Shown here: piece by piece, positions 1 through 35,140 of the stretch | How positions within the stretch are numbered: the stretch's first letter is position 1 | How the letters are laid out: every line of letters starts with the position of its first letter | Source: Nanobdellota archaeon | GTDB lineage: Archaea > Nanobdellota > Nanobdellia > Pacearchaeales > GW2011-AR1 | Assembly: GCA_038045425.1 (NCBI GenBank) | Contig: JBBSYD010000045.1 | Span: 1-36,210, forward strand | Direction of reading: 5' to 3' | DNA length: 36,210 nt | The notes under the pieces: generated by a model | Database searches by the model: none | What the model was told of the DNA's origin: nothing | Seen by the model: only the letters and a program-made list of their open reading frames with translations | Position numbers and translations under genes: made by a program

Positions 1-3000
1 GGAGGAGTAACTGGCAATGTTTTGATTGAAGATGCTTATGTTTATGATGGAAAAGTTGTGGAGGGAGAGGACTTTGAGTATACTCTTGAAGAAGGGCAGA
101 GTGCAGAATTAGTTTTGGGGAGTGTTAAAGTTAATGGTGAATTGATTGACGATGCTCATATTAATGTTGAGGTGCAAGGGAGAAAAGTTATTGTTTCAAC
201 TGATTATGAGATTGTTGAGGAAGGATTTGGAGAGGATTATCTTGGAAGTTCAAAGATAAAATTAAATGTAAATTTATCTGCTTTAGGGATACTTGTTGAA
301 GGAGACAAGTTGACTTTGAAGTTGATTTATGGAAATAATACTCTTGCTAATATTCAAAAGACTTTGCTTATAGATTATTTAGAGGAAAATGTTTCGAATT
401 TAAGTTTTGTTAAATTAATACCTACGATTAGAATTGCTAAGAATGGAAATTATGAATTGAATTTAAATAATTATTTTGAAGGGGCAGAAAGATATGTTTT
501 CAGTAGTAAGAATATAAGTTTTACAGGAGATAATGGGATTTTAGTATTATCTCCGTTTGAAGATTTTACTGGAGCAGTTAAAGGAATTGTTACTGGATAT
601 TCTGGAAATAATAGTGTTGAAAGTAATGAGTTTACGATTTTAGTTTCATCAGGAGGAATTAACATTAGTACGAGTAGAGAAAAAATTAAAGTTGGAGAGC
701 CAGTTAAATGGACTAAGAAAGTTAATGTAGAGGTTTCTGAAAATGTTAGCGTTAGTATTCCTTTTGATGCAGAAAATGTAGTAGTAACTAAGTTTGGGGG
801 TTCTGAAGAAATTGTTTCAGATGTGATAAATGAAAATACTATTTTGGAGGAAAATTTGAGTAAGGGTATTACTGGAAATGTAGTTTTTGAAATAAATTCT
901 CGAAAAGAATTTTTCTTATTTGGATGGGCTAGAGAGATATTTAGAGGAGTAACTGGAAATGTTATTTCTGAAGAAAATGGGATTAATTCGGTTGAAACAA
1001 AGGAGATTTTGTTAGGGCAAGATTCTTCTGTGGAAAGTTATACTATTGAATATGAGACTTCTGCTCCAATGGCTATTGAAAGTGAAACTTCTTCTGGAAA
1101 AGAAGTAGTTATTTCTGGTCCAGATGCTCTTCATTATACTGATGTAATTGCGTCTGCTAATATTAGTAGAAATATTTCTATTGAAAATTCTGGAAGAATT
1201 AAGATTTATTGGAAGGACTATTCTTTGACTTCTGAGAAGATTAAGAAAGTTGATGAAGTTCTAGATGAGGAGGTTGTTGAAGAGGTTTCTAATTCTAATT
1301 TAGATGAGGAAGATATTGTTGAAAATTTAGTAGATAATCAAAGTGATAGTTTAGATAGTTATTCTGAAGGAATGTTAATAACTGGAAATGTTATTAGCGG
1401 TTCTGAAGAAAATTATTTAGAAGTGAATAATTCAGAGGGTATAACTTCTAATGTTAATAATTCAGAGGTTTTGGAGGTTGTTAATGGTAAAGAGTATGTT
1501 TTGAGAGAAGTTCCTTTTGATTATTATGACTTAGATGGAGATGGAAATGTGGATTATGTTGAGTGGGTTGTTCCTCATTTGAGTAATCAGACTTATCAAA
1601 TTATTTATATTACTCATGCTGAAGAGTTAGATAGTAATAGAACTTTCGTTAGAGATATATATAATGAGGTTAAGGCGAGAGATGATAATTGGACGACCAT
1701 TTCTGCTGGGAATTTTGTAAGGGTAATGTTTGAAATAAATTTGACTTCTAGTAAGGATATTACTCTTTATGCGAGGAGTAATAATTCTGGAAGAATAAAT
1801 GTTTATGAAAAAGATTCTGATGTGGAATTGGCTGATTTTGGAGTTATTGGGGAAGATGGAAAGTATAGAATTCTTTTGACGAATTTGATTGGGGAACAGG
1901 ATACTTTTGATTTGAAAGTTTTGAATGGGAGTGTAGAGTTTGATTGGATTGTTGACCCTACAACAATTCCTCAGCTTACTATCATTACTCCTCAAAACAA
2001 TCAGTATTATTCTACTTCTACTGTAACATTTAATGCAAGTTCGAATGAAAATGGTTCAGGATGGTATCTATTTGCTCCAGTCAGTACTCCTTCAGTTATT
2101 AATAATTCTCTTAAGATTTATTACGATTTCGATAGCTTTGTTGCACCAAGTAAAATTGTTGATTTAAGTCCACGAAAGAATAATGCTACAAATACAAGTT
2201 CTAAACAAACCACCTTGGGTAAATATGGGCAAGGATGGTATTTTGATGGAACGGACGATATCTATCTTTCTGGAAGTGCAGTCGGAATTAGTGGAAGTAA
2301 TTCTTGGAGTATTTCTATTTGGTTTAATTCTTCTTCTCTTGCTGGAGTTCGTCCATTATTTTATTGGGGTGTAGCAGGAACATTAGATTTAGCGATATTT
2401 GGAACTTCTGGAACTACCCCTATAGCTTGGAGTTATAGCGGGTGTGATTTAGTTGGAAATAATACTTTGACTACTGGAACTTGGTATAATATGATTGCAA
2501 CTTATAATGGGTCTAGAAAAAATCTGTATATTAATGGTGCAATTGTAGCTAATTGTACTGCAACTCTTTCTTTAGTTAGTACGGCGGTTAAAGGAGGAGA
2601 ATATACTTTATCTGGAGGATGGACAGATTATTCTGGATATCAGGATGAATTACTTATCTTTAATAGAACTCTTACTGCTTCTGAAATTGCTTCTTTGTCA
2701 TCTAGTAATCCTAAGACTTTGAGCTTTGTTAGTTCTTTAGATTCTCCAGTATATCTGATGACTTCAAACGCAACTGGGACTGGATTTAATTTCACTAATA
2801 CTTCTATTCCTGACGGAGTATATACTGTGAAATTTTTTGCTAATGATACTTATGGAAATATTAATTCAACAGTCGCAGCAATAAACTTTACTGTTGATAC
2901 TGTTGCTCCTAATGTTACCGTTGTTAATCCATTGAATCAGAATTATTCTACTTCAGTGATTAATTTCAATGTGACTACTTCGGAGAATGCTACTTGTAAT

Positions 3001-6000
3001 TATACTATTACTTCTGGGGCTACTAATTATACTATGACTGGAAATGCAACTGGAACTGGATTTGGAGCTGTTAATTCGAGTGTGCCTGATGGGCAGTATA
3101 CCGTTAGATATTATTGTGCGGATATTGCTGGGAATTTGAATTCATCTGTTACTCGAGCGTTTGGAATAGATACAGTTGCTCCTAACGTTGCAATACTTAG
3201 TCCAGCTAATCAGAATTATTCTACTTCTGTAATTAACTTTAATGTGACTACTAATGAAAATTCAACTTGTAATTATACTCTTAACGAAGGAGTTACTAAT
3301 TATACTATGACTGGAAATGCAACTGGAATAGGATTTAATGCAACTAATTCTTCAGTTCCTGTTGGACAATATACAGTCAGATATTATTGTGCAGATATTT
3401 TAGGTAATTTAAATGATGGCGCAACGAGAGAATTTGGAGTTCTTTCATCTACAATAAGTAGTTGTGGCTCTTACGGAACTTTGGGAGCGTATACTCTAAG
3501 TCAGAATATCTCAGGTACTGGAACGTGTATTACTTTAGAAGATTATAACAATATTGAAATTAATTGTCAAGGATATACTATAACTTATGGTACTTCTGCT
3601 GGAGCAACGGTGCATGGAATTTATGGTTCTTTTGCTTCAGTTAAGAATAATATTACCATTAAGAATTGTAATATCGTTAGAACAAATACCAGTACTGCAG
3701 GTTCTGGAATTTATGCTATAAGAATAAATGCTTCAACTATATTTAATAATACTATAAATGTAACTGGTAGTTCTGCAATTTCTGGAATAAATATTGGAAC
3801 TACTTCAGGTAATTTGAATATCTCTAATAATACTATTTATACTGGGGCTAGTGGAGCAGGAACTGCTGCAATTCTTACTTCTACCAGTGACGTGGCTGGA
3901 TTGTATATTGGGAGTAATCAGATTCTTTCAGGATATAATGGGGGAACTTCTGGATTTGATGGAATTTCTATTACTGCTGGATATGGTGCTGTTGTTGAAT
4001 ATAATAATATAAGTGTTTATGGCAGCGGAAGTAATAAGGGGATGTATGCTACTGGAACGTCTAATGCTAATTTTACAAGTAATACTTTGAGTATTTCTAC
4101 TTCTGCTGCTGATCATTATGGAATTGATATTGCAGGGGTTTCTGATGGAACGAGATTAGTAAATAATACTATTAGTTTAGTAGGAACTTCTACACAAAGA
4201 GGCATAAACTTAGGTTCAAATAGTATTTCTGTTATTAATAATAGTATTACGATGTTTGCTACTTCAGCACCGTATGGGATTAGTAATTTGGCTACTTATG
4301 ATAATGCATATATTTATGGAAATAATGTAACTGTAAATGGGACTAATGATGCTCATGCAATGATGATTGCAGGTTTTGTAGATAATCTCTGGATTGAAAA
4401 TAATAATTTTAAGACTAGTGGAACAACTAGGACGACTGCTACAAATGGACCAGATGTTGTTCAATTAGTTTCTTCTGCTTCTGGAGGATATATTACTAAT
4501 ATTACTTTTAAGAATAATATAATTAATCTTAGCGGAAAAGGAAGTGCTATAGAAATGGCAGGGTCGGGTGATTTTCCATATGATATTTATTTTATTAATA
4601 ATAATATTCCTCGAGGAGAATATCTTTATTTGTCAGTTCAAGATGATTATACTGGCTTGTATTTTTATGATCAGGATATTCCTGGAAATTATTCTTTTGC
4701 TGGGGCAGGTAGTACTGTGCGAGTAGAGAATACTAGTTCTGGGAGAATTTATTTTCTTAATTATTTAACTGGAACGGGAGATAATTTCAGTTCAGATATT
4801 GTTATAGGAAATAATAGTGCGTATGTTAATTCAGCTCAAACTGGGCTTAATACAAGTGCGAATGTTTCTCTTTACGGATTAAGAACTGACTTTTCTGATC
4901 CTAAGATACTTCGAAATGGAGTTCTTTGTACTACTTGTTATAACTTTACTTCTCTTAATGCTGGGAATGTTTCATTTAATGTGACTGGATGGAGTAATTA
5001 TAGTATTGGGGATATTTCAATAGTTCCTCCAGTTGTGGTATCGGTTATATTAAATTCATCTGATGGTTTGAATAGAACAAATGAGAGTTTGAGTTGTTAT
5101 ACTAATATAACTTCTAATCAAGCTACGGTTTATGCTAATTATACTTGGTATAAGAATGGAACTGTTAATTTATCTGGACAGAGTGCAGGATTTACTCAAG
5201 GAACTTTAGGTTTGGTTTCTGTGCTTGGTGCGGGGAATACTACTAAGGGAGATAATTGGACGTGCAGTGTAAAAGCTTATGATGGGGTATCTTATAGTGA
5301 TAATTGGACTAATGCTTCTTTAGTAATTTTAAATAGCCTTCCAGTTGTAACTCTTATTTCTCCTACTGATAAAAATTCAACTACAAATAGAGCTCAAGAG
5401 TTTACTTGGAGTGCGTCTGATTTGGATGGAGATAGTTTAGGATATCAGATTACTCTTAATTCATCTTCTTATATGGGTTCTCCACCTGTGGCTTGTAGTG
5501 AAAATATTTTGACTATTACTTCTTCATCTAGTTTCACTCCTTCTAGTGATTTAAGCTGTTTGTATGATAATGGATATGTTTACAATTGGAGCGTTAGAGC
5601 AAATGATAGTGAGGGTTATGGTGCTTGGAGTGGAATATGGAGTGTTAATATTACTGCAAGTCTCGCGATTAGTTTTGTTAATTCAAATGTGGCGTTTGGA
5701 GTATTATCTTTATTAGAATATAATGATACAACTAGTAATAATCCTACTCCGTTCATTATTCAGAATGATGGAAATGTTTTTGTTAATACTTCTTTGAATG
5801 GTACCTCTTTGTGGGAAAATACACCAAATCCAAGTAGATATTTCAAGTTTAAGATTGATAATAATACTTTTAGTGGACCAAATGAATTGGGAGCATTTAA
5901 TTGGGCGAATTCATTAACTAGTTGGACAAATGTTTCAACTTCATTAACTACTGCGATAACTTCTCTTAATTATTCAGATGCCAAGGATAGTGCGGAGATA

Positions 6001-6084
6001 GACATTTATGTTGAAGTGCCTTCAGGGGAATCTTCAGGAAGTAAATCATCAATTATCACATTCAATTCAATATTGGGAGAATAA
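1..6084 (+). CDS. Giant secreted surface adhesin-like protein, 5'-truncated by the window edge (>2027 aa): acidic N-region, split Ig-like domain with nested LamG domain, two more Ig-like repeats, parallel beta-helix region, C-terminal Ig-like modules
   Basis: Frame 1 is open from nt 1 (GGVTGNVLIE precedes the TTG at 22 used by the ORF track), so the true start is off-window. Stop is TAA 6082-6084. It carries a LamG_3-type pattern, 91-aa repeats, NxTIxN beta-helix rungs, a DLDGDGNVDY Ca-loop-like motif and very dense N-x-S/T sequons. Confidence 0.9.
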   Translation, partial: GGVTGNVLIEDAYVYDGKVVEGEDFEYTLEEGQSAELVLGSVKVNGELIDDAHINVEVQGRKVIVSTDYEIVEEGFGEDYLGSSKIKLNVNLSALGILVEGDKLTLKLIYGNNTLANIQKTLLIDYLEENVSNLSFVKLIPTIRIAKNGNYELNLNNYFEGAERYVFSSKNISFTGDNGILVLSPFEDFTGAVKGIVTGYSGNNSVESNEFTILVSSGGINISTSREKIKVGEPVKWTKKVNVEVSENVSVSIPFDAENVVVTKFGGSEEIVSDVINENTILEENLSKGITGNVVFEINSRKEFFLFGWAREIFRGVTGNVISEENGINSVETKEILLGQDSSVESYTIEYETSAPMAIESETSSGKEVVISGPDALHYTDVIASANISRNISIENSGRIKIYWKDYSLTSEKIKKVDEVLDEEVVEEVSNSNLDEEDIVENLVDNQSDSLDSYSEGMLITGNVISGSEENYLEVNNSEGITSNVNNSEVLEVVNGKEYVLREVPFDYYDLDGDGNVDYVEWVVPHLSNQTYQIIYITHAEELDSNRTFVRDIYNEVKARDDNWTTISAGNFVRVMFEINLTSSKDITLYARSNNSGRINVYEKDSDVELADFGVIGEDGKYRILLTNLIGEQDTFDLKVLNGSVEFDWIVDPTTIPQLTIITPQNNQYYSTSTVTFNASSNENGSGWYLFAPVSTPSVINNSLKIYYDFDSFVAPSKIVDLSPRKNNATNTSSKQTTLGKYGQGWYFDGTDDIYLSGSAVGISGSNSWSISIWFNSSSLAGVRPLFYWGVAGTLDLAIFGTSGTTPIAWSYSGCDLVGNNTLTTGTWYNMIATYNGSRKNLYINGAIVANCTATLSLVSTAVKGGEYTLSGGWTDYSGYQDELLIFNRTLTASEIASLSSSNPKTLSFVSSLDSPVYLMTSNATGTGFNFTNTSIPDGVYTVKFFANDTYGNINSTVAAINFTVDTVAPNVTVVNPLNQNYSTSVINFNVTTSENATCNYTITSGATNYTMTGNATGTGFGAVNSSVPDGQYTVRYYCADIAGNLNSSVTRAFGIDTVAPNVAILSPANQNYSTSVINFNVTTNENSTCNYTLNEGVTNYTMTGNATGIGFNATNSSVPVGQYTVRYYCADILGNLNDGATREFGVLSSTISSCGSYGTLGAYTLSQNISGTGTCITLEDYNNIEINCQGYTITYGTSAGATVHGIYGSFASVKNNITIKNCNIVRTNTSTAGSGIYAIRINASTIFNNTINVTGSSAISGINIGTTSGNLNISNNTIYTGASGAGTAAILTSTSDVAGLYIGSNQILSGYNGGTSGFDGISITAGYGAVVEYNNISVYGSGSNKGMYATGTSNANFTSNTLSISTSAADHYGIDIAGVSDGTRLVNNTISLVGTSTQRGINLGSNSISVINNSITMFATSAPYGISNLATYDNAYIYGNNVTVNGTNDAHAMMIAGFVDNLWIENNNFKTSGTTRTTATNGPDVVQLVSSASGGYITNITFKNNIINLSGKGSAIEMAGSGDFPYDIYFINNNIPRGEYLYLSVQDDYTGLYFYDQDIPGNYSFAGAGSTVRVENTSSGRIYFLNYLTGTGDNFSSDIVIGNNSAYVNSAQTGLNTSANVSLYGLRTDFSDPKILRNGVLCTTCYNFTSLNAGNVSFNVTGWSNYSIGDISIVPPVVVSVILNSSDGLNRTNESLSCYTNITSNQATVYANYTWYKNGTVNLSGQSAGFTQGTLGLVSVLGAGNTTKGDNWTCSVKAYDGVSYSDNWTNASLVILNSLPVVTLISPTDKNSTTNRAQEFTWSASDLDGDSLGYQITLNSSSYMGSPPVACSENILTITSSSSFTPSSDLSCLYDNGYVYNWSVRANDSEGYGAWSGIWSVNITASLAISFVNSNVAFGVLSLLEYNDTTSNNPTPFIIQNDGNVFVNTSLNGTSLWENTPNPSRYFKFKIDNNTFSGPNELGAFNWANSLTSWTNVSTSLTTAITSLNYSDAKDSAEIDIYVEVPSGESSGSKSSIITFNSILGE
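2110..2697 (+). other. LamG / concanavalin-A-like lectin domain (Laminin_G_3-type) inside the giant ORF
   Basis: LKIYYDFDS..DLSPRKNNATN..GKYGQGWYFDGTDDIYLSG..NSWSISIWFNSS..GTWYNMIATYNGSRKNLYINGAIVA..YQDELLIFNRTLTASEIASL follows the canonical Laminin_G_3 order of conserved positions. Confidence 0.8.
2893..3438 (+). repeat. Tandem in-frame duplication, 2 x 273 nt (91-aa Ig-like module)
   Basis: Copy 1 (2893-3165) reads VDTVAPNVTVVNPLNQNYSTSVINFNVTTSENATCNYT..QYTVRYYCADIAGNLN. Copy 2 (3166-3438) reads IDTVAPNVAILSPANQNYSTSVINFNVTTNENSTCNYT..QYTVRYYCADILGNLN. My hand count gives 70 of 91 residues identical. Confidence 0.9.
3441..4620 (+). other. Right-handed parallel beta-helix (PbH1-like) repeat region of the giant ORF
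   Basis: Rungs recur about every 22-25 aa: NITIKNCNIV, NNTINVTGSS, ISNNTIYTGASG, EYNNISVYGSG, FTSNTLSISTS, VNNTISLVGTS, INNSITMFATS, YGNNVTVNGTN, ENNNFKTSGT, FKNNIINLSGKG. Confidence 0.7.
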
Positions 6085-6579
6085 ATGGAAATAACAAAGA
6101 AACATATATATGCGATAGACTTTGCAATTATAGTTGGAACTTTGATTGTTTTATTTACTTTGGTAATTTATATGAGGCCTATGGTTATTTCTCCATTGGA
6201 TAATTTGGAAACTACAAATAATTCTATGCTTTTCTCATTTGAAAAGGGGAATATAATTTATCTTGATGATAATATTGAATTTACTTCTCCTGAAAAAATA
6301 TCCGCAGAAAATAATTTAATTATTAATTTAAAGCCGGGAGTTTATTATTGGAAAGTTGAGGGAGTTGTTAAGAGTGAAACAAGAACTCTAACAATAAAAT
6401 CGGAAATAGACTTGAGATTGAGAGAAGCGGGGGAGTTTTATGAAGTGGTTAACTCAGGAAATACTAGACTGAAGGTTGATATCTATAATAATAACACTCT
6501 TGTTGGTAATGTTATTTTAGAAAGTGATGAGAGTGCGAACGTTTCAGGGACTAAATTTGTGGGGGCTCAAGATGAATAA
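6085..6579 (+). CDS. Small membrane-anchored beta-rich protein (164 aa), function unknown
   Basis: The ATG abuts the TAA of the giant ORF, with GGGAG 5 nt upstream. It has one N-terminal TM helix (IYAIDFAIIVGTLIVLFTLVIY) followed by a ~120-aa ectodomain. Confidence 0.65.
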   Translation: MEITKKHIYAIDFAIIVGTLIVLFTLVIYMRPMVISPLDNLETTNNSMLFSFEKGNIIYLDDNIEFTSPEKISAENNLIINLKPGVYYWKVEGVVKSETRTLTIKSEIDLRLREAGEFYEVVNSGNTRLKVDIYNNNTLVGNVILESDESANVSGTKFVGAQDE

Positions 6580-7771
6580 ATTATTATTTAGTATTTTGTT
6601 TGTGTTGTTATTGGCGTCGAATGTTTATGCTTTAGGAATAACTCCTGCAAGAGCACCTGTAGATTATTCTGCTGGTTTAGAGAAGGATATTGTATTTACA
6701 GTTATAAATTCAGAACATAAGGATATGGATTTGAGTATTTCTGTGCAGGGAGAGATGAGCAGTGGAGTTATACTGGAAAAAGATAGAGTGCATGTAAGTG
6801 CAGATGATGGTGAAATTAAAGTGAATGCTAAATTTAAAGTTCCAGAGGGATTAACTCCTGGAAAACATGATGCGAATATTGTATTTTCACAAATTCCTGA
6901 AAGTCAAGGGAGCTCGGGAGGAGCGTCTGTCCAAGCAGTATTAGCAGTCACTTCACAGATTTCTCTTTATGTTCCATATCCTGGAAAATATCTAGAGGGA
7001 GAATTAAAGGTTTCTGGAACTGGAAAGGAAAAAACCTTTGTAATTAGTATGCTTAATAGAGGTAAAGATAATATCGGGAAAGTTTCTGCTTCAATTCATA
7101 TTTATGATTCTTCTGAGAAAGAAGTTAGAGTGTTAAAGACTAATGAGATTTCTTTGAATTCTCCAGGTAGTGGGGAAGTTAATGCTTTGTGGAATTCAGA
7201 TGTTCCCGAGGGTAAATATCATGCAAAGGCAGTTGTTAATTATGATGGGCAGGAAATTTTATTTGAAAGTCCATTTGAAGTTGGAGAACTTGTTTTAGAT
7301 TTACAACAAATAGTTGTTAAAGATTTTACTTTAGGAGGGATTGCTAAGTTTGATATGATTGTGATGAATAAATGGAATGAACCAATTACTCAAGCATATG
7401 CTGAGATGAGGGTGTATGATGATAACATGAAGGAGATTGTTAGTATGAAATCTTCAACTTATGATATTCCTGCAGGAATGCAAACTACTATGAATTATTA
7501 TTGGGATACTAAGGGTGTTTCTGAAGGATTATATAATTCAAATATAATTTTGTATTATTCAGGAAAGAAAACACAGCAGGATCTTAAGTTGGATGTTAAG
7601 AGTGATAGAATTGATGTAACTGGATTGGGTTATGTTATTTCTTCAGAAACTAGTTCGGGAAGCGGAGGAATGATTAATATTCTTATAATTGTTGTTGTGA
7701 TATTAGTTTTAATCAATGTTTTATGGTTTTTGGCTTGGAGAAAAAAGAAAGTTGGGCAATTGAAGAGCTAA
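6572..7771 (+). CDS. Secreted, C-terminally anchored multi-CARDB/Ig-like surface protein (module protein A1)
   Basis: I trimmed the start from 6524 to ATG 6572, which gives the signal peptide MNKLLFSILFVLLLASNVYA|LGITPA and an 8-nt overlap with the upstream stop. The protein has an SSGSGG linker, a TM helix and RKKK at the C-terminus. It is a paralog of 8702..9853, sharing PGKH, GGAS..VPYPG(K/R)YLE, G(K/N)Y..NY and G(L/R)Y..N(I/L)(I/L)LxY. Confidence 0.8.
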   Translation: MNKLLFSILFVLLLASNVYALGITPARAPVDYSAGLEKDIVFTVINSEHKDMDLSISVQGEMSSGVILEKDRVHVSADDGEIKVNAKFKVPEGLTPGKHDANIVFSQIPESQGSSGGASVQAVLAVTSQISLYVPYPGKYLEGELKVSGTGKEKTFVISMLNRGKDNIGKVSASIHIYDSSEKEVRVLKTNEISLNSPGSGEVNALWNSDVPEGKYHAKAVVNYDGQEILFESPFEVGELVLDLQQIVVKDFTLGGIAKFDMIVMNKWNEPITQAYAEMRVYDDNMKEIVSMKSSTYDIPAGMQTTMNYYWDTKGVSEGLYNSNIILYYSGKKTQQDLKLDVKSDRIDVTGLGYVISSETSSGSGGMINILIIVVVILVLINVLWFLAWRKKKVGQLKS

Positions 7772-7824
7772 TTTTACTAAAAAAATGCTTTTTTGACGGA
7801 AATATTTATAAAGGAGTTATTGTA

Positions 7825-8037
7825 ATGTATGATATGGTTAAAAAGAATGTGGCGATGATTTTACTTGTTATTGCAGTAATTTTGGTTGGAGTTTGTATTT
7901 ATACTTATTTTTATGGGGCTGAGAAGATTTCTTCTGATGACTTAGGGGCATCACAGGAAGGTAGTTCTGGTGGTGGGCAAGTTGGAATTGTTATATTACC
8001 TCCGGAGGTAGAGGATAGAGGAAATGGCAGTGGTTAA
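7825..8037 (+). CDS. 70-aa single-pass membrane protein (module protein B1)
   Basis: I trimmed the start to ATG 7825, which has AAGGAG at 7811-7816. It has a TM helix (VAMILLVIAVILVGVCIYTYFY), a GSSGGGQ segment and an acidic tail. Confidence 0.5.
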   Translation: MYDMVKKNVAMILLVIAVILVGVCIYTYFYGAEKISSDDLGASQEGSSGGGQVGIVILPPEVEDRGNGSG

Positions 8038-8659
8038 GAAAGTGAATGAGGTGTCTGAGAATGAGTGGTATAGTTATGTTGCTTATATTTCTATGGTAGT
8101 TATTGTTTTAGCAGTTATTTATTTGGGTTTGGGTTCTCAAGTTATTACTGGGAATGCTACTTTTAATACGACTCAAGGAACTGTAAATGTTAGTATTAAT
8201 AATCTAACTGCTATTAATTTTACGGCTAATAATATTAATTTTGGAGCTGGTGGAGTAACTATAGGTACTTCTACTGCTTATCTTTATTCAAATAATGGAA
8301 CTACCACGGGGGGGTCTTGGAGTTTTTCTGCGCAGAATCTTACTTTAGAAAATATAGGTAATAATAATCTTACTATGGTAAATGTATCCTTTGGAAAGAC
8401 TGCGGATACTCTCATTGGAGGAGCGGGCGCATTATATCAGTTTATGTATAATGATGCTGAGGCTGGAAGTTGTACTGGAGGTACTGTTACTGCTAATACT
8501 TGGACTAATACACTTACTACTAATCAGACGATTTGTACTCTTTTCCCTGCAACTGATACTAGCGATAGCATTTATATTAGTATTAAGTTAGGAATACCTT
8601 CTGCTTCAGCTTATACAGGTTCTTTAGGAGATGTTGTAACTGTTACAGTTATGACTTAG
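8024..8659 (+). CDS. Secreted beta-rich protein with a TasA/camelysin-like sequence pattern; candidate fibre subunit (module protein C1)
   Basis: GAGGA lies 8 nt upstream, and the start overlaps the B1 stop by 14 nt. A signal-anchor is followed by ITGNATFNTTQGTVNVSI..INFGAGG..LTLENIGNNNLTM..KLGIPS. The protein is collinear with 10265..10852. Confidence 0.7.
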   Translation: MAVVKKVNEVSENEWYSYVAYISMVVIVLAVIYLGLGSQVITGNATFNTTQGTVNVSINNLTAINFTANNINFGAGGVTIGTSTAYLYSNNGTTTGGSWSFSAQNLTLENIGNNNLTMVNVSFGKTADTLIGGAGALYQFMYNDAEAGSCTGGTVTANTWTNTLTTNQTICTLFPATDTSDSIYISIKLGIPSASAYTGSLGDVVTVTVMT

Positions 8660-8670
8660 TGAGGGGAAAA

Positions 8671-8680
8671 ACTATAAAAA
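8671..8680 (+). promoter_or_regulatory. TATA-like box for the 8702 gene (leaderless arrangement)
   Basis: ACTATAAAAA is centred about 26 nt upstream of ATG 8702, with no SD-like purine run placed correctly in between. Confidence 0.4.
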
Positions 8681-10278: not shown

Positions 10279-10852
10279 ATATTATTTTATTATAGTTTTT
10301 TTAATGGGAATTATTTTAATGGTTTTTATTCCTTATTCTACAGTTGGAAGGGCAATAGGAACGGCAGAGGGAACATTAAATGTTACTATTGAGACTACGA
10401 CTAGTCTTAATTTTACGGTAAATCTTGTTAATTTCGGTAGTGGAAGTGTAGCTCTTGGACATAGTAATGCTACACTGGATACTTTAGGTAATGTTATTGA
10501 TGGGAATTGGACTCCTGTAACGGATGGGTTTACTTTGGAGAATATTGGTAATACTAATCTTTCAGTTTATATAAAATCTGATAGCGATGCAGATATTTTT
10601 TTGGGTGGAACGAATCCAGCATATTATTATATGATGAGTAATCTTGAGTTGAATAGTTGTTCTAATGAGTCTTTACCTTTTTCTTCTTGGACTTCAGTGA
10701 ACACTACGGGTTATGGTGATAAAGTGTGTAATGAGTTTCAACCTGTTTTAACTAATAATAGTCTTAGACTTGATTTGAAATTAGTTATTCCTTCTGATGC
10801 TTTGCTGGGAGAAAGAACTGATACGTTTACAGCTACTGGAATAAGTTCCTAA
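10265..10852 (+). CDS. Secreted beta-rich protein with a TasA/camelysin-like pattern (module protein C2), paralog of 8024..8659
   Basis: I prefer ATG 10265 (GAGGG 8 nt upstream) over ATG 10250. A TM/signal segment is followed by AIGTAEGTLNVTIETT..VNFGSGS..FTLENIGNTNLSV..KLVIPS. Confidence 0.7.
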   Translation: MENYEYYFIIVFLMGIILMVFIPYSTVGRAIGTAEGTLNVTIETTTSLNFTVNLVNFGSGSVALGHSNATLDTLGNVIDGNWTPVTDGFTLENIGNTNLSVYIKSDSDADIFLGGTNPAYYYMMSNLELNSCSNESLPFSSWTSVNTTGYGDKVCNEFQPVLTNNSLRLDLKLVIPSDALLGERTDTFTATGISS

Positions 10853-12907: not shown

Positions 12908-15900
12908 AAATAAAATTAGTTGTTGTAATGAAAGAATGGGTTTTAGGTATTTAGGTATTTTTGTTTTTGTTTTGATATTTTTTACTGGAATTGCGTGGGC
13001 GATTGATTGGATAGGTACTCCTTGGACTACAACTACTCAAGGAACTGAAGATGGTAGTCCTTCAGTTAGTTTTAATTTAAGTCAGTATATCTCTTATACT
13101 GCTGGAGAACTTCCTTTAAGTTTTATGTTTGGTGCTGATCAAAATATCTCTTCTTCTCTTTACGGTTCAAAGGTAACTTCCTTTTATTCTTGGATAACAT
13201 TGAATTCTTCTAGTGGGATACTAACTATTAATTCAACAAATGATAATCAAACGGGAGAATTTAATATTTCTTTAGTTACTTATGAAATTGGAGGGACTAG
13301 TGTTGCTGCTAAAGTATTTCCTTTTTTGATAAATGCAACTAACGATGTTCCTAATTTTACTCTTGTAAGTAATTATACTATGAGTGTGATGAGCACGAAT
13401 AATACCAATTCATTTAATTTAACTGGAAGTGATGAAGAACAGCATTATCCTCTTAGTTATAATATAAGTTTTAATTCATGTTCTTTGGCGGCTTGGAGTT
13501 CTAGAATTGGAACTTCTAATAATTGTAATCTTTCTTATCTTATAACTGGTTCAAGTAATATTACTTCGGTATTGAATATAACTGATTATGGGGGCAATGA
13601 TATTGGAACTTATAATGTAACTATTTGTGCAAAGGAAAATGTTAATTCTGTAGCTTTACCTACTTATCGGGATTCTAGTTATAACACTAATAGGTCAGTT
13701 TGTAAGAATACTACTTTGATTGTTGAAAGAGCATTGTCGATAAATGTTTCTAATTGTTCTAATAGTATTCTTAATGAAAGTGTTGCTTTTAGTTGTTATG
13801 TTAATGTAACTACTAAGGGTGAAATCGATTCTTTGCTTGCTTGGAGTAATTCTACTTTAAGAAACACTGGAGCAGGACTTTCGAATTCAAGTTGGTTTTT
13901 TCTTAGTAACTCTTCTAGTTCAAGTAACTATTCTCAGTCATATTATATTGCTGTAACTCCTCAGAAGACCGAGATTGGAAATTTAACTGTAAATTTTACA
14001 GTTAGAGATATTACTACTGGTGAAAATTCTTCTTCTTTGATTTATATTTATGTTAATAGAACTACAAATTCTGTTCCAGTTATAACTTCCATAAGTAATG
14101 TCGTTACTTCAGTAGATTTACCTACTAATATTTCTTTTAATGTTTCAGATAATGATTTATTAATTCCTGATAAGGCGTTATATAATGAAAGTGCGAATAT
14201 TACTTGGAGTATACTTAATGTTTCAGATAATAGTCAAGTATTAAGTTTAAGTGATTTTGATATTTTAAGCTCTGGAACGGGATTGGGAGTAATTAGTAAT
14301 TTGACGAGGGCTAGAATTGAGTTTACTGCGAGTTCAATTGAATCGGGGAATTATACTATTAATTTAAGTGTTCGTGATGAGGATGATGCTTTAGCGTATA
14401 CTTTATTCAATATTAGTATCTTAAATAATCATCCTCCTTTATGGATTAATCCTATTCAAACTACTTTTATGGTAAATGAAACGCAAAATGTTTATCTTAA
14501 TTTATCACTTAATGTTTCGGATGAGGATGAAGATATTCTTACTTTTTCTTATGTGTTGAATAATTCTTTTCCTTCTTTTAATTTAAATTCTTCTACAGGG
14601 ATAATCAATTTTACAGGGAATGATTCGGATGTTGGGCAACATTTGGTTAATATTACGGTTAATGATGGATATTTAAGTAATGTTACTGAGTTTAATTTTA
14701 CTATTCTAAATCTTAATGATAATTTGACGATTGAGTCTTTTTCGGATTATGGCTTTTTGAACTCAACTACAAATTCTAATACTACTGAAGATACTTTGAC
14801 TAATATTACTCTTTGGATATATGATAACGATATTTTAATTCCTTCTGGGCAAAAAGCATTTTATAATGAGAGTTTTATGATTAATGTTACAATAGAAGGA
14901 GCTAATACTTCGCTGTTTAGTAGTTTTTCAAAAACTTCTGCATTTCCTGATTCTAGTTATCCGAATAAAACTGAATATATTGCAAATTTTACTCCTGGAA
15001 AAGCAGATGTGGGAAATTATAATATTACTATTAATGTAACAGACGCAAGTAATTATTCTAGCGTTTTGAGATTTAATATGACTGTATTAGAATTAAGTCA
15101 TAATCCTACTTTAACTGCAGTGAGTAATCAAACTGCATCCATTTTACAAACGTTCAATTATAATTTTAGTGCATCAGATGTTGAAGATGGAAATTCAAGT
15201 ATTTCTGGAAACACTAATTTTATATTTTATATAAATGATTCCTTAAGTTTAATTAATTTTAATTCAAGTTATTTTAATAATAATACTGGAGTTTTATCTG
15301 TTCTTTTCAATCAGACTCAAGCAGGAAATCATCTTATTTCTCTTACTGTTTCCGATAGTGATGGAATGAACGCTAGCACTACTTTTGGGTTGAAAGTTTA
15401 CGATTATCCTAATGTTACTTATCCTTCTAATTTGACTTCCTATAACGCTACTGAAAATTCTTCAACTAATTTTATCTTTGCTATTAATCATACTGTTGCA
15501 GATTCTCTTAATTATTCTTTTTATTTGAATTCAGTTTTAATTAATGCTTCTTATTCAATTGCGAACGGGAGTAATATAACTTTTATATTTACTCCTAATT
15601 TTACTCAAGAGAGTTATGGTACGAATTCTAATTTGAGTTTGTTTGTTTATAATTCGGTTTATTCTGAATTAAACTCTACAGGTTTGTTTTACTTTAATAT
15701 AAGTCATGCTAATTATCCTGTTGTGCTATATGCTAATATCTCAAATCAGAGTTCTTCTTCTAATTTGACTTTATCTCTTAAAGATTATTTTAGAGATTTT
15801 GATGCGGATGATGTTAATATAAATCAATCGATTAGATTTAATTATACTTTAGTTAATCTTTCTTCTGGAGCAATTTCTATTACTCAAAATAATTGGGTTA

Positions 15901-16763
15901 ATGGTAGTAGCCCGAATATTACATTTAGTGCGAGTGCGTCTTCTTCTGCTATTTATTCAATTAGTGCATATGAATATAATGAAAGTAACGATTCTCAGAT
16001 TATTAGAAATCTGTCAAGTAATAACTTTTCTGTTGATTTAAATGTTGAAGTGGTTTCTACTCCTTCTCCTTCTACTGGTGGGGGCGGTGGAGGAAGTTCG
16101 GATACAGTTAATACTATAAAGATTATAGTTTCTCCTCTGGAAGTTATAGAACAAGATGGATATTTTAGTATTCCTTTTCAGATAAAAAATACTGGGCAGG
16201 GGACTCTGAGCGGAATAAATCTTGATAGTCTTTTGGCTTTGAGCATACAGGGGGAAGTTAATATTAGTCTTTCTAAATTGTACATCGATTCTCTTTCTTC
16301 TGGAGAATCTGAAGAGGTAATTCTTTATATCTTTGCAGATACTAATAAATCTGGAAAATATTTAGTTACTTTATTTGCAAATGTTACTTCTCCTAAGATT
16401 TCTGATTGGGCAGATTTTTATTTAGAAATTATAGAACCTAAGCGGAAAGTTAAAGAGATAATCATATTTACGGAACAACTTATGGTAGATAATCCTGAAT
16501 GTAGAGAGTTAAATGAGTTGCTCAATGAGGCTAAGAGTTTAATGGCAAATAATGATTTTGATGCTGCTTTCAATAAGGCACAAGAAGCAATTGATGGTTG
16601 TAGGAAAATAATGGCTCTAGATAGTAAGAGGAGTCTAACTCAAAATTTGTATGGGGATTACACTTATTATTTTCTTCTTACATTTTTAGTAATGGCTATG
16701 TTCTTAATCTATATTTTATACAAAAGAGCAAGGTTTAAAAGTAAATTTCCCCATAATATATGA
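12900..16763 (+). CDS. Giant anchored surface protein with multiple cadherin-like repeats, Gly hinge, CARDB-like domain, helical stalk, TM anchor
   Basis: ATG 12900 overlaps the upstream stop by 8 nt. The signal-anchor is GFRYLGIFVFVLIFFTGIAWA. Repeat boundaries are NDVPNFT, NSVPVIT, NHPPLWI and SHNPTLT. Six Gly codons sit at 16077-16094. The C-terminal TM is YYFLLTFLVMAMFLIYILYKRARFK. Confidence 0.9.
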   Translation: MNKNKISCCNERMGFRYLGIFVFVLIFFTGIAWAIDWIGTPWTTTTQGTEDGSPSVSFNLSQYISYTAGELPLSFMFGADQNISSSLYGSKVTSFYSWITLNSSSGILTINSTNDNQTGEFNISLVTYEIGGTSVAAKVFPFLINATNDVPNFTLVSNYTMSVMSTNNTNSFNLTGSDEEQHYPLSYNISFNSCSLAAWSSRIGTSNNCNLSYLITGSSNITSVLNITDYGGNDIGTYNVTICAKENVNSVALPTYRDSSYNTNRSVCKNTTLIVERALSINVSNCSNSILNESVAFSCYVNVTTKGEIDSLLAWSNSTLRNTGAGLSNSSWFFLSNSSSSSNYSQSYYIAVTPQKTEIGNLTVNFTVRDITTGENSSSLIYIYVNRTTNSVPVITSISNVVTSVDLPTNISFNVSDNDLLIPDKALYNESANITWSILNVSDNSQVLSLSDFDILSSGTGLGVISNLTRARIEFTASSIESGNYTINLSVRDEDDALAYTLFNISILNNHPPLWINPIQTTFMVNETQNVYLNLSLNVSDEDEDILTFSYVLNNSFPSFNLNSSTGIINFTGNDSDVGQHLVNITVNDGYLSNVTEFNFTILNLNDNLTIESFSDYGFLNSTTNSNTTEDTLTNITLWIYDNDILIPSGQKAFYNESFMINVTIEGANTSLFSSFSKTSAFPDSSYPNKTEYIANFTPGKADVGNYNITINVTDASNYSSVLRFNMTVLELSHNPTLTAVSNQTASILQTFNYNFSASDVEDGNSSISGNTNFIFYINDSLSLINFNSSYFNNNTGVLSVLFNQTQAGNHLISLTVSDSDGMNASTTFGLKVYDYPNVTYPSNLTSYNATENSSTNFIFAINHTVADSLNYSFYLNSVLINASYSIANGSNITFIFTPNFTQESYGTNSNLSLFVYNSVYSELNSTGLFYFNISHANYPVVLYANISNQSSSSNLTLSLKDYFRDFDADDVNINQSIRFNYTLVNLSSGAISITQNNWVNGSSPNITFSASASSSAIYSISAYEYNESNDSQIIRNLSSNNFSVDLNVEVVSTPSPSTGGGGGGSSDTVNTIKIIVSPLEVIEQDGYFSIPFQIKNTGQGTLSGINLDSLLALSIQGEVNISLSKLYIDSLSSGESEEVILYIFADTNKSGKYLVTLFANVTSPKISDWADFYLEIIEPKRKVKEIIIFTEQLMVDNPECRELNELLNEAKSLMANNDFDAAFNKAQEAIDGCRKIMALDSKRSLTQNLYGDYTYYFLLTFLVMAMFLIYILYKRARFKSKFPHNI

Positions 16764-17755
16764 TGCGAAATAAAGAGCGTAGATATATTCCTGAAAGTGT
16801 TCTTCAAAAAACTTCAAGGGATATAGAAAAAATTGAGGAAGAGGTTTCTAAGGTTGTTATGGGTCAGAAAGATATAGTTCAACATATTATTCAGGCAATT
16901 TTATGTAATGGGCATATACTAATTGAAGGAGTACCTGGAGTTGCTAAGACTTTAATTGTTAGAGCTCTTGCGGCAGTTACCGGGTGCGATATGAAAAGAA
17001 TTCAGTTTACTGTAGATTTGTTACCTAGCGATATAATTGGAATTAATAGCTATAATCCTTCTACTAAGGTGTTTAGTTTTAAAGAAGGACCTGTTTTTAC
17101 TAATTTTCTTATAGCTGATGAAATAAATAGAAGTCCTCCAAAAACGCAGTCTGCTCTTCTTCAGGCAATGCAGGAAAAGGAAGTCTCTGTTGGAAATGAT
17201 ACTCATGACATAAAAAAACCTTTTTTAGTTATGGCAACTCAAAATCCAATTGAACAATCTGGGGTATATAATCTTCCAGAGGCAGAAGTGGATAGATTTT
17301 TATTTAAAATAAACATTGATTATCCTCAGTTTGCAGAGGAGATAAGTATTTTGGATACTAATATTACTATGCATAATTTTGATGATTATAACCTTAAGGA
17401 AGTGATTTCTCGAGTGGATATACTAAATTTGCAACAAAGGGTAAAAGAAGTTTTTAGTTCAAAGGAGATAAAAGACTATCTTGTAAAAATTGTTCATTTA
17501 ACTAGAGATAAGAATAAATCTTATTCTAAGTATATAAGTTTGGGAGCTAGTCCTAGAGGAGCAATTGCATTACATATAGCTTCAAAGGCTAAAGCTTTAA
17601 TGAGCGGAAGGGATTATGTTCTTCCGGAAGATGTAAATGCTGTTGCTAAGCCGGTTTTAAGGCATAGACTTATTTTAAATTATAAAGCTGAGGCAGAGAA
17701 GGTTACTCCAGACAAAGTCATAGAAGAGATATTAAATCATTTAAATCCAGCTTAA
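16760..17755 (+). CDS. moxR: MoxR-family AAA+ ATPase
   Basis: It has an ATGA overlap with the upstream giant gene. Motifs present are Walker A GVPGVAKT, Walker B FLIADEINR, ATQNPIEQSGVYNLPEAEVDRF and the C-terminal GASPRGAIAL lid. Confidence 0.95.
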   Translation: MMRNKERRYIPESVLQKTSRDIEKIEEEVSKVVMGQKDIVQHIIQAILCNGHILIEGVPGVAKTLIVRALAAVTGCDMKRIQFTVDLLPSDIIGINSYNPSTKVFSFKEGPVFTNFLIADEINRSPPKTQSALLQAMQEKEVSVGNDTHDIKKPFLVMATQNPIEQSGVYNLPEAEVDRFLFKINIDYPQFAEEISILDTNITMHNFDDYNLKEVISRVDILNLQQRVKEVFSSKEIKDYLVKIVHLTRDKNKSYSKYISLGASPRGAIALHIASKAKALMSGRDYVLPEDVNAVAKPVLRHRLILNYKAEAEKVTPDKVIEEILNHLNPA

Positions 17756-17756
17756 A

Positions 17757-18659
17757 ATGGGAGTTAAATTACAATTAGATTATCCAGAGGCAATTTCTGA
17801 GTTTGAGAGAATATTAAGAAAATTTAATATGAAAAAGAAAATTTATAAGTTGTTATTTAGTGGAAGAGGATTGGAATTTGAGCAATTTAGGAATTTTGAA
17901 GATTCCGATGATGCTTCAGGTATAGACTGGCCAGCTAGTTTGAGGGCAGATAAGCTTTTAATAAAACAATATGTGGAAGAGAAGGACATTAACTTTTATT
18001 TTGTTGTTGAGGTGAGTAAGAGTATGCTTTTTGGTTCTGGAAATAAACTTAAAGCAGAATATGCTGCAGATATTATTCTTTCTTTAACTGATTTAGTTTT
18101 TACTTCGCAGGATAAATCCGGACTTGTAATGTTCAATGATAAGGTTGTTAATTATGTTTCTCCAAAGAATTATAAGAAACAATTTTATTCTATGGAAGAA
18201 TTATTGTCTAACATGGAAGGTTATGGCGGGGGAACTGATTTTAAAGGAGTAATAGACTTTTTACTTCAAATTATCAAGGGAAAGAATAATATGGTAGTTT
18301 TTATATCTGATTTTTTGCATATGCCTTCTAACATAGGTGCAGATTTTGATTTATTAACTAAAAAATCTGAAGTTATTGCTATTGCTGTGAGAGATTTATT
18401 AGATTTAGAATTGCCAAAGACTAGTAATTTGCTGGTTCTTAGAGATCCTATTTATGATGAGGCGTTGGTTGTGGATACTTCTATTGTAAAAAATTCTTAT
18501 GAAGAAATTACTAGAAAACAAACGCAGGCAGTAAGAGAGGTTTTTAAAAATACAGAAATAGATTATCTTGAACTTAGAGCTGATTCTCCATTTGTTATTC
18601 CAATAATACAATTTTTACAACAGAGGGTTGGAGGGATTAATCATGGCCATCTTTTCTAA
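17757..18659 (+). CDS. DUF58-family protein (degenerate VWA-like), the usual MoxR partner
   Basis: It starts 1 nt after the moxR stop. DDASGIDWPASLRADKLLIKQYVEEKD matches the DUF58 signature (D..R.IDW.AS.R...L.V..Y.EE), and the FYFVVEVSKSM strand follows it. Confidence 0.8.
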   Translation: MGVKLQLDYPEAISEFERILRKFNMKKKIYKLLFSGRGLEFEQFRNFEDSDDASGIDWPASLRADKLLIKQYVEEKDINFYFVVEVSKSMLFGSGNKLKAEYAADIILSLTDLVFTSQDKSGLVMFNDKVVNYVSPKNYKKQFYSMEELLSNMEGYGGGTDFKGVIDFLLQIIKGKNNMVVFISDFLHMPSNIGADFDLLTKKSEVIAIAVRDLLDLELPKTSNLLVLRDPIYDEALVVDTSIVKNSYEEITRKQTQAVREVFKNTEIDYLELRADSPFVIPIIQFLQQRVGGINHGHLF

Positions 18660-19590
18660 TCTGGGAATTCAACTGATATTTGACTATCCTCAATTTATTA
18701 TAGGTTTGGTATTGATTCCTATTTTTGTTTTTATTTATTTATTTGGAATGTTTTACAAAAATAAGAGAACTATTGATTTTCCAAATTTTGAAGCACTTAG
18801 AAGAACTGGATTAACTGAAGTCCATTCTAGAAATACATTTTATCTTTATATGTTCATGGTTATTATTCTTTGTTTAGTATTATCTTTGGCAGGAACAAGA
18901 ATTAGTTTTAATTCAAATAGTGGAGATTATTCTTATGTTTTAGCAGTGGATAATTCGGATAGCATGAGAGCTAAAGATCTTGAACCTGATAGATTATCTG
19001 TTTCAAAAATTGCTGCTAAGAATTTTATAAGTAATCTTCCTATGGGGGTTAAGGTAGGAGTCATTACTTTTTCTGGAGATGTAAAAATTGTTTCTTCGCT
19101 GGACAATTATAAATTGGGACATTTAGGAAAGATAGACAGTATTGATTTTAGTGATGTTGCAGGTACTAATATTAGAGATGCTGTTCTCCTCGGGGGAGAA
19201 CTTTTGAAAAAGGAAAAAGCCAAGTCCATAATTATTATCAGTGATGGACAAATTAATTTAGGTAATTTGAGTGAGACTATAGAATATGCACAAGACAATA
19301 GTCTAGTTATTAATACTATTGCAATTGGGACGGTTTCGGGAGGAGATACAGGTTATGGATTTATTTCTAAAACTGATGAGTTGACTTTAAAATCTCTTGC
19401 TTTTAACACAAATGGGAGATTTTTTAGTGTGACTAATACTCGAGAGATGAATATTTCTTTTGATGAAATGTTAAGTAATTCTGCTGGACGTATTGAAATA
19501 AATATTTCATACTATTTATTGATGTTAACTATTATTCTCATAACTTTATATTGGGTGCTTTATAATTTTCGCTTTAGAAACTTTCCTTAA
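18643..19590 (+). CDS. Membrane-anchored von Willebrand factor A protein (BatA-like) with an intact MIDAS motif
   Basis: I trimmed the start to ATG 18643 (GGAGGG at 18630-18635), which overlaps the DUF58 stop by 17 nt. It has two N-terminal TM helices, the MIDAS motif DNSDSM, then GTNIRDA and IIIISDGQ, and a C-terminal TM helix. Confidence 0.9.
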   Translation: MAIFSNLGIQLIFDYPQFIIGLVLIPIFVFIYLFGMFYKNKRTIDFPNFEALRRTGLTEVHSRNTFYLYMFMVIILCLVLSLAGTRISFNSNSGDYSYVLAVDNSDSMRAKDLEPDRLSVSKIAAKNFISNLPMGVKVGVITFSGDVKIVSSLDNYKLGHLGKIDSIDFSDVAGTNIRDAVLLGGELLKKEKAKSIIIISDGQINLGNLSETIEYAQDNSLVINTIAIGTVSGGDTGYGFISKTDELTLKSLAFNTNGRFFSVTNTREMNISFDEMLSNSAGRIEINISYYLLMLTIILITLYWVLYNFRFRNFP

Positions 19591-35139: not shown

Positions 35140-35140
35140 G

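Follow-up and report, generated by a model that had tools for sequence, protein, structure and literature searches.

Organization of the locus

The subject of this analysis is a tightly packed train of cell-surface protein genes that ends in a MoxR-DUF58-VWA gene trio in a Nanobdellota archaeon (Pacearchaeales, GW2011-AR1; GenBank assembly GCA_038045425.1). The DNA examined, referred to here as the window, is the whole stretch of 36,210 nucleotides at positions 1 to 36,210 of contig JBBSYD010000045.1. Across bases 1-19590, the open reading frame (ORF) list and the junction read-out place 13 genes back to back on the plus strand (Table 1). The region comprises two adjacent surface modules: module 1, which spans g01 to g08 or g09, and module 2, which consists of g10 and the trio, usually with g09 ahead. 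The argument developed below concerns above all the pairing of g10, a giant membrane glycoprotein, with the trio.

An initial annotation of this DNA had described 13 plus-strand genes separated by gaps of at most 66 nt and seven start/stop overlaps, among them an ATGA overlap of the last giant gene (g10) with MoxR, and all of these are reproduced. The overlaps lie at 6572/6579 (ATGAATAA), 8024/8037, 9850/9853, 10265/10278, 12900/12907, 16760/16763, and 18643/18659, those at 9850/9853 (g06/g07) and 16760/16763 (g10/MoxR) being of the ATGA type, and the remaining junctions are gaps of 0-66 nt; the DUF58 gene begins 1 nt past MoxR and is itself overlapped by the VWA gene. Alternative starts are available for g10 (12936, which would leave a 28-nt gap), g13 (TTG at 18628), and g04 (7723 or 7825). 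Because other start/stop overlaps are common in this compact genome of 31% GC, for example at 26393/26402 and 28270/28273, the overlaps alone are ordinary operon features, and the above-chance aspect of the locus is the arrangement conserved across genomes. TATA-like and oligo-T strings can be seen by eye in three short intergenic gaps, which is weak evidence at 31% GC.

The 5' end of g01 is cut by the window edge, with no stop codon in bases 1-21. On the source contig (L170; ENA ERZ1292629, Hainich groundwater well H43; 78,920 bp), full-length g01 encodes 2324 amino acids, in line with the protein of more than 2000 amino acids with LamG and Ig domains that had been annotated initially, and Pfam identifies both Laminin_G_3 (1e-12) and Big_13 (2e-10) in it. 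A 548-amino-acid Big_9/cadherin-like surface protein is encoded before g01 on that contig, and the train therefore begins upstream of the window.

Table 1. Genes of the plus-strand train in the window
Gene	Coordinates	Strand	Description
g01	1..6084	+	Giant secreted adhesin, 5'-truncated; LamG, Big_13, beta-helix-like repeats; C-terminal domain X
g02	6085..6579	+	164 amino acids, N-terminally anchored; conserved directly after g01; orthologues in 26 loci
g03	6572..7771	+	WxLIP-like membrane anchor: signal peptide, three Ig-like domains, C-terminal transmembrane helix
g04	7825..8037	+	Single-transmembrane protein of ~70 amino acids; alternative start 7723
g05	8024..8659	+	Small domain X protein, N-terminal transmembrane/signal helix
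g06	8702..9853	+	Second WxLIP-like membrane anchor; g03 paralogue
g07	9850..10278	+	N-terminally anchored single Ig-like domain, ASH/Cep192 (PapD-like clan) type
g08	10265..10852	+	Second small domain X protein; g05 paralogue
g09	10919..12907	+	Type-I membrane protein: cadherin-like repeats, Gly linker, Cys-rich module, C-terminal transmembrane helix
g10	12900..16763	+	1287-amino-acid type-I membrane glycoprotein; invariant partner of the trio
MoxR AAA+ ATPase (AAA_3)	16760..17755	+	Cytoplasmic; Walker A GVPGVAKT, Walker B LIADE, lid domain
DUF58	17757..18659	+	Cytoplasmic VWA-like adaptor, no transmembrane helix; PF01882 7e-36
g13, BatA-type membrane VWA	18643..19590	+	Double-transmembrane N-terminal domain, VWA with a metal ion-dependent adhesion site (MIDAS), C-terminal transmembrane helix

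The MoxR-DUF58-VWA trio

Few prokaryotic AAA+ modules are as widespread as the MoxR-DUF58-VWA (Bat-type) trios, for which we know of no client. The MoxR protein of the window matches PF07726 (AAA_3) at 6e-60 and 201 bits (cut-off 27) and PF17863 (AAA_lid_2) at 3e-24 and 85 bits, and the motifs GVPGVAKT, LIADEINR, ATQNP (sensor), and GASPRG (Arg) are intact in the translation. A conflict or defense system is one conceivable identity for such a protein, since a weak Pfam match to bpMoxR (7e-10) was also obtained and MoxR-vWA ternary conflict systems are described (PMC7159879). However, the AAA_3 match lies far above the bpMoxR match, effector and beta-propeller partners are absent, and PADLOC returned nothing save a marginal IetA match, on which result the defense-system reading of the cluster was rejected. 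Taken together with accidental synteny, which is excluded by the conservation counts given below, we regard this explanation as highly improbable.

The DUF58 protein of the window carries a partial MIDAS-like site, ExSxS. In g13, PF13519 (VWA_2) and PF00092 (VWA) score above their cut-offs, PF07584 reaches 25.4 bits against a cut-off of 25.9, and matches to the NCBIfam BatA models fall below cut-offs. The intact MIDAS initially reported for this membrane protein is present, the full motif DxSxS...T...D being unchanged across 13 orthologues and the DxSxS core across 39 of 39 loci. On the positive-inside rule, the predicted topology of g13 is an outward N terminus, a first transmembrane helix, an inward Lys-rich loop, a second helix, an outward VWA domain, a third helix, and an inward RFK tail; the conserved parts assigned to the cytoplasm are the loop NKKKAVLFSNFEAMERF and the tail NLRFKVIP. 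Borrelia BB0173 has the same architecture, and its VWFA domain was found experimentally to be periplasmic (PMC5700661).

The tight coupling of MoxR (AAA_3), DUF58, and a BatA-type protein is shared with Bat operons such as Borrelia BB0170-BB0176, as is the arrangement of the BatA-type protein itself, in which the VWA domain, with its MIDAS, lies between a double-transmembrane N-terminal domain and a C-terminal transmembrane helix. In contrast to those operons, BatB (the second VWA protein), BatC (TPR), and BatD were found neither in the window nor in 12 related DPANN loci, a giant cadherin-like type-I membrane glycoprotein is always encoded upstream, and the host, an archaeon, has no outer membrane. 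The trio members consequently belong to the MoxR (AAA_3), DUF58, and BatA families; lacking BatB, BatC, and BatD, they fall short of a complete Bat operon.

Two variations of the trio were seen in related contigs. The MoxR orthologue of L096 (16938-19535) is split within its AAA+ domain by an in-frame insertion of ~1.4 kb that reads like a homing-endonuclease-containing intein. One subclade (L121 16050-16819, L095 12903-13808, and L096 16030-16938) has an extra gene of ~185-215 amino acids between g10 and MoxR, whose product combines a transmembrane segment with a PRC-barrel-like C terminus; MoxR carries an N-terminal extension there.

The membrane glycoproteins g09 and g10

The two genes ahead of the trio encode large, repeat-containing membrane proteins. 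In g10, a Gly linker separates the Ig/cadherin-like repeats from a CARDB-like domain, which is followed by a helical stalk containing conserved Cys residues, the transmembrane helix, and a short conserved cytoplasmic tail that in most orthologues reads YKRVRFNKS..DEY[VI]. The repeats of both proteins are assigned from sub-threshold matches to Cadherin_4, Big_9, He_PIG, and PKD (for g10, to Big_9, He_PIG, and PKD in orthologues), and the consensus sequences of the two contain DxD and NDxAP-like linker motifs. N-glycosylation sequons occur at 3.8 per 100 amino acids in g09 and at 7.6 in g10.

Conservation in g09, with which the facultative upstream module ends, is highest in the Cys-rich module beside the membrane (C.DG..NCH..CELL.DCGGPC...TCSDG..NQ.E..DCGGPC). 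Secreted proteins of ~440 amino acids encoded a few kilobases past the trio in L009 (11326-12654) and L016 (18471-19784) share the DCGGPC-type motif in short, high-identity matches, and these genomes therefore have the Cys-rich module of g09 in further surface proteins as well.

Conservation of the linkage across genomes

A GTDB species-genome scan with MoxR returned 12 DPANN loci, from metagenome-assembled genomes (MAGs) of Woesearchaeota, Pacearchaeota, and Nanoarchaeota, with MoxR proteins 51-63% identical; the remaining matches came from bacteria or from other archaea, at 49% identity or below. Each of these DPANN species genomes (12 of 12) has a g10 homologue, 28-38% identical, as the immediate upstream neighbor of MoxR-DUF58-VWA, the DUF58 and VWA genes adjoin MoxR in all of the loci, and g09 stands ahead of g10 wherever the DNA is long enough. 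Further upstream, the genes for the anchors (g03/g06), for proteins with domain X (a domain shared by g01, g05, and g08 and described below), g02, and g01 are present in varying number, from none in L018 to two anchor modules plus the giant, and an extra MAG locus (L087) has the whole window architecture with a LamG giant of 4664 amino acids. Among 68 non-DPANN MoxR loci, tblastn detected no homologue of g09, g10, g03, or g05 in any; as the ORF maps of high-GC bacterial MoxR loci are unreliable, the tblastn counts alone were used.

For the reciprocal test, metagenomes were scanned with a g09 profile, and 80 loci were obtained. Where at least 6 kb lay downstream (n = 45), g10 and the trio followed in one same-strand run in 36 loci (80%), and in the other 9, with absence scored at the locus, module 1 occurred alone. 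Where at least 1.2 kb lay downstream of g10, MoxR was found within ~1 kb in 36 of 36 metagenome loci, with a small PRC-barrel-like transmembrane protein gene or an N-terminal MoxR extension intervening in 5 of them. The junctions of the unit are tight throughout, with gaps of 0-42 nt or overlaps, and over 40 loci the first gene past VWA belongs to any of 11 classes, mostly in convergent orientation. The unit that does not vary is thus g10-MoxR-DUF58-VWA, whose adjacency is constant although the flanks on either side differ, and g01-g09 form a facultative attached module (80%).

The initial annotation had made its proposal depend on conserved linkage between the trio and surface genes in related genomes, and among the DPANN genomes that linkage is kept. 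Its further claim, that the trio is hard-wired to a set of adhesin and fiber genes, holds for g10, next to which MoxR is always found, and fails for g01-g09, which can occur apart from g10 and the trio as the nine loci above illustrate.

These counts also bear on a second explanation, in which g09, g10, and the trio would together make up a secretion or assembly apparatus that exports or assembles the domain X proteins and the giant adhesin. Within DPANN, such an apparatus would correspond to the archaeal arCOG01314 (DUF4350)-MoxR-vWA-Ig/S-layer operon for which Makarova, Galperin, and Koonin (2015) predicted a "secretion or membrane remodelling complex" (PMC5898192). The joint occurrence of both modules in one same-strand run at four fifths of the g09 loci would fit this idea, as would the published prediction itself, which places MoxR and vWA with Ig-like or S-layer-like proteins in euryarchaea. 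In the virus ATV, the MoxR protein p618 and a VWA protein are reportedly implicated in extracellular tail growth. Against this idea, module 1 can stand without g10 and the trio, L018 has the trio with g09 and g10 but no module 1, and a lone g04-g05 pair is located far from the trio in the genome that provided L011. Moreover, no polytopic channel-like protein was found among the window proteins, and we therefore consider this explanation rather unlikely.

The complex of Makarova and colleagues is nonetheless the closest conceptual archaeal precedent, being likewise an archaeal operon in which several Ig-like proteins, membrane-bound or secreted, accompany a COG0714 MoxR and a vWA protein, and being interpreted as a surface complex with its assembly or state under the control of the ATPase. 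The locus described here differs from it in that neither DUF4350 (pfam14258, arCOG01314) nor pfam07760 gave a Pfam match among the window proteins, the VWA protein is of BatA type and accompanied by a separate DUF58, the Ig proteins g09 and g10 belong to unrelated families, and the lineage is DPANN.

Proposed role of the trio and co-variation of its parts

Placing gene content, domains, motifs, and linkage side by side, we propose, at about an even chance of being right, that g10 has in the trio a trans-membrane AAA+ chaperone or remodeller dedicated to it. The outward MIDAS of g13 would bind an acidic ligand on the ectodomain of g10 or g09, while the conserved loop and tail of g13, together with the cytoplasmic tail of g10, would dock the cytoplasmic DUF58 adaptor; ATP spent by the MoxR hexamer would then drive assembly, activation, or turnover of the adhesin. 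The loop and tail of g13 and the tail of g10 are the only conserved cytoplasmic features and hence the candidate sites for contact with DUF58 or MoxR. The membrane topology, the physical contacts, and the ATP-dependent role in this scheme, and with them the dedicated ATP-dependent maturation or anchoring suggested in the initial annotation, are what we infer from sequence, predicted structure, and gene neighborhood, as is every function proposed in this study.

Co-variation between two of these parts is consistent with a contact. Of 39 loci in all, 24 have a g10 tail with FNK...(D/E)xY, and DUF58 has the canonical DxSxS motif in each of these 24; in 13 of the 15 loci without this tail, the DUF58 motif is degenerate (DxGxN, DxSxN, DxGxS, DxSxR, or, as in the window, ExSxS).

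Several observations weigh against a trio devoted to g10. The FNK tail type is largely one clade of the MoxR tree, which amounts to few independent events, and because it forms one clade the co-variation is suggestive and not proof. Some of the compared genomes share synteny downstream of the cluster as well, and part of the conserved linkage may be inherited gene order. The VWA domains of g13 orthologues have 0.15 sequons per 100 amino acids, like the cytoplasmic DUF58, which lends no support to an extracellular VWA domain; the clearly secreted g03 also has zero sequons, however, which weakens sequon density as a test of topology. Finally, bacterial Bat-type trios work without a g10-like protein, and a general envelope role is possible.

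That last point underlies a third explanation, a co-regulated envelope island in which the trio performs a generic Bat-like job, such as membrane or envelope homeostasis or stress tolerance, and is merely co-transcribed with abundant surface proteins without acting specifically on g10. Bat-type MoxR-DUF58-VWA trios are indeed widespread without g10-like genes, including in Altiarchaeota (L022), and compact genomes often put unrelated genes in tight same-strand runs. Chance packing of that kind is difficult to reconcile with a g10-MoxR adjacency of 100% over ~49 loci in which g10 identity is 28-54% and the flanks are variable, and a generic Bat job is at odds with a g10 cytoplasmic tail that is conserved and co-varies with the DUF58 motif, as well as with the lack of the BatB, BatC, and BatD partners. 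On balance we judge a merely co-transcribed trio to be somewhat unlikely.

A more specific version of the g10-directed remodeller can also be speculated upon. In it, g10-MoxR-DUF58-BatA would serve episymbiotic DPANN archaea as an ATP-driven switch for adhesion, integrin-like and working "inside-out," an idea that we regard as a long shot. The MIDAS-like site of DUF58 would grip the acidic end of the g10 cytoplasmic tail while MoxR pulls, and the outward MIDAS of the BatA-type protein would clamp the cadherin-like ectodomain, so that the cell could engage or release its host on demand.

Module 1 and its likeness to WxL clusters

No Pfam family scores above threshold in the eight proteins between g01 and g10, and the assignment of module 1 draws on relatives and on structure prediction. 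The paralogues g03 and g06 (30% identity, 3e-29) had been labeled "CARDB-like" in the initial annotation and are better described as WxLIP-like. Their family comprises 261 clusters in a profile search, and among 83 members scanned, PF11797 (DUF3324, the host-binding domain of WxL-interacting proteins) was found in 44 (best 4e-8), CARDB in 3, and PF06030 (DUF916) in 1; g03 of the window itself has no Pfam match, PF11797 being seen in relatives only. The AlphaFold2 model of g03 (predicted local distance difference test, pLDDT, 91.5) runs from a signal peptide through three Ig-like domains to a C-terminal transmembrane helix. Foldseek matches it to the Enterococcus faecium WxLIP structure 9i25_C (E 5.7e-9, template modelling scores 0.25/0.39) and also to 9i1y, together with generic tandem-Ig arrays such as hydin ASH, complement MG domains, RbmA, and the DraB chaperone.

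The small proteins g05 and g08 are likewise paralogues (32% identity, 6e-29), and g08 matches the domain X profile at 8e-67. Their family, which carries no annotation, numbers 112 clusters in a word search and 2602 clusters at 50% identity in a full HMMER search. The last ~150 residues of g01 are homologous to this domain X (hmmsearch --max domain E 2e-15), and hhalign of 26 g01 C termini against the g05 family gives 98.9% probability at E 2e-17; another database protein, of 1066 amino acids, likewise ends in domain X. In the g05 AlphaFold2 model (pLDDT 91.4), the N-terminal transmembrane/signal helix is followed by an unstructured conserved segment with the consensus GTVNVTI and then by a beta-sandwich. 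The best Foldseek matches are the donor-strand pilins CsuA/B (7zl4), FimG, FimA, PapA, and PapE and the Sulfolobus thread subunit Saci_0406 (7pnb). The scores are weak (E of at least 0.014, template modelling scores 0.3-0.45), which tells against a pilin assignment, and domain X is accordingly described here as no more than weakly pilin-like.

Other affiliations of domain X were considered and set aside. The "TasA-like" label given initially to g05 and g08 did not hold up: none of 110 family members matches PF12389 (TasA), searches of PDB sequences with g05 and g03, as single sequences or as profiles, yielded no usable match, and TasA (5OF1) and AbpA (7UEG) are absent from the g05 Foldseek top 50. 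PF13731 (WxL) likewise matches 0 of 110 members, and the consensus lacks WxL motifs; the full-database HMMER profile search listed close family members only and does not reach remote TasA or WxL links. A type-IV pilin match (6w8u, E 0.5) was discarded because it covers the hydrophobic N terminus only, and a class III (type IV pilin) signal peptide was considered for g05, whose N terminus has neither the usual short charged leader nor a G/A cleavage motif.

When these parts are placed together, proteins consisting of domain X alone, a giant ending in domain X, and WxLIP-like anchors, module 1 follows the logic of the WxL clusters of Firmicutes, the architecture being analogous because the shared domain differs. 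Firmicutes WxL/Csc clusters encode a small WxL protein, a large WxL protein, and a WxLIP protein (DUF916-DUF3324-transmembrane) (PMC10599100, PDB 9I25), and the correspondence extends to a membrane-anchored tandem-Ig protein that is probably WxLIP-like, a small single-beta-domain protein, a giant with binding domains and the same C-terminal domain, and small anchored accessory proteins. In contrast to those clusters, the shared domain here is not WxL and lacks the dual WxL motif, the archaea have no peptidoglycan to bind, and the anchor has three Ig domains; a MoxR module has not been reported in WxL clusters. A hairpin of WxLIP is predicted to insert beside the WxL N terminus in Firmicutes (PMC10599100). 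By analogy, g03 and g06 would hold the small (g05, g08) and the large (g01) domain X proteins. Beta-strand complementation may be the means of such holding, and short fibers may be built from the small proteins.

Archaeal bundling pili offer a further comparison, as they combine a 204-amino-acid subunit, AbpA, with a three-domain partner of 410 amino acids, AbpB (PMC9245690). Module 1 resembles the AbpA/AbpB and Bacillus TasA/TapA pairs in coupling a secreted beta-rich subunit of ~200 amino acids with a three-domain beta-sandwich partner of ~400 amino acids, in a conserved N-terminal segment that could be a donor strand, and in having no chaperone/usher. It differs from them in that no sequence or Foldseek link was found and the partner is transmembrane-anchored and WxLIP-like. 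With regard to chaperone-usher pili, an usher was not found, and g07 has only sub-threshold PapD-like clan matches, its family of 32 scanned members including 11 with Cep192_D4 (best 4e-5) and 4 with ASH, all sub-threshold.

The giant g01 carries 5.0 N-glycosylation sequons per 100 amino acids. For the small accessory proteins, a Pfam scan of 27 g02 members gave no match, and a possible homology between g02 and g07 was rejected when the two proved unrelated on comparison. Orthologues of g04, 65-69 amino acids long, lie directly upstream of g05 homologues without exception (L001, L005, L087, L089, L125). In L125 (3896-6536), a locus with g01-g09 but without g10 and the trio, the g04-g05 pair is repeated three times in tandem after the first anchor gene. 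An identical domain X protein of 199 amino acids is followed by an LSM gene in MAG contig L001 and by a g06-g07 module in metagenome contig L003, a difference that suggests either that strains vary or that one of the assemblies contains a mis-join.

Genes downstream of the trio

The VWA gene is followed by a non-coding stretch of 753 nt (19591-20343), which gave no Rfam match and folds no better than shuffled sequences. It contains a 31-nt direct repeat in two copies (20061-20091 and 20128-20158) that are 90% identical and 67 nt apart from start to start, a CRISPR-like geometry with two copies only, as well as a GC-richer, hairpin-like segment near 19800-19880. Convergent to the operon, the minus strand at 20344-21015 encodes a 223-amino-acid, Lys/Glu-rich coiled-coil protein with an N-terminal transmembrane segment; a homologue of it is the first gene past VWA in 10 of 40 related loci, and a MinD/ParA-like ATPase holds that place in 16.

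Beyond this gene, 21164-26117 encodes two Ig-like proteins with a signal peptide and a C-terminal transmembrane helix (548 and 401 amino acids), followed by an extremely Lys/Glu-rich coiled-coil protein of 684 amino acids. The two Ig-like genes, g15 and g16 (21164-24022), were considered as members of the system and rejected, their only link being a faint Ig-domain match to the WxLIP-like profile and neither being conserved in related loci. The segment 26184-30309 holds likely toxin-antitoxin-type pairs, namely, a 72-amino-acid protein gene that overlaps a PIN-domain gene (26393-26764) and two helix-turn-helix-nucleotidyltransferase genes (27665-28273 and 29142-29738), each overlapped by a partner of ~185-205 amino acids; an 81-amino-acid, ParA/MinD-like N-terminal fragment lies at 27119-27364. 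On the minus strand, 32218-34557 is a family-B DNA polymerase-like ORF of 779 amino acids, judged from its translation only, next to which two ORFs at 34765-36145 have HExxH-like motifs.

Relation to known systems and significance

A search of the accessible literature found no paper on a DPANN MoxR cluster or on this gene composition. The initial statement that no described system of this composition was known thus stands, but the idea itself has a precedent, since MoxR-vWA beside archaeal Ig-like or S-layer-like proteins had already been predicted to form a surface complex (PMC5898192). Pairs of vWA and MoxR/GvpN were, in addition, noted near some archaeal type IV pilus loci by Makarova et al. 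in 2016 (PMC4858521). In the bifidobacterial PFNA cluster (pkb2-fn3-MoxR-DUF58-tgm; PMC8430577), MoxR and DUF58 likewise adjoin an Ig-like (FN3) surface protein; that cluster differs in that it encodes a transglutaminase and a Ser/Thr kinase but lacks a BatA-type VWA protein, and its organisms and surface proteins are unrelated to those considered here.

The pairing described in this study provides g10 as a specific candidate client for a Bat-type trio and turns a vague chaperone role into a testable pairing. If the adhesion switch speculated upon above were true, the widespread MoxR-DUF58-BatA trio would for the first time have a defined substrate and mechanism. The logic of the WxL cluster, in turn, exists in DPANN archaea, built partly from probably homologous parts (the WxLIP-like anchors) and partly from a new, unannotated domain family of ~2600 clusters at 50% identity. 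Both modules are candidate host-attachment hardware for episymbiotic archaea.

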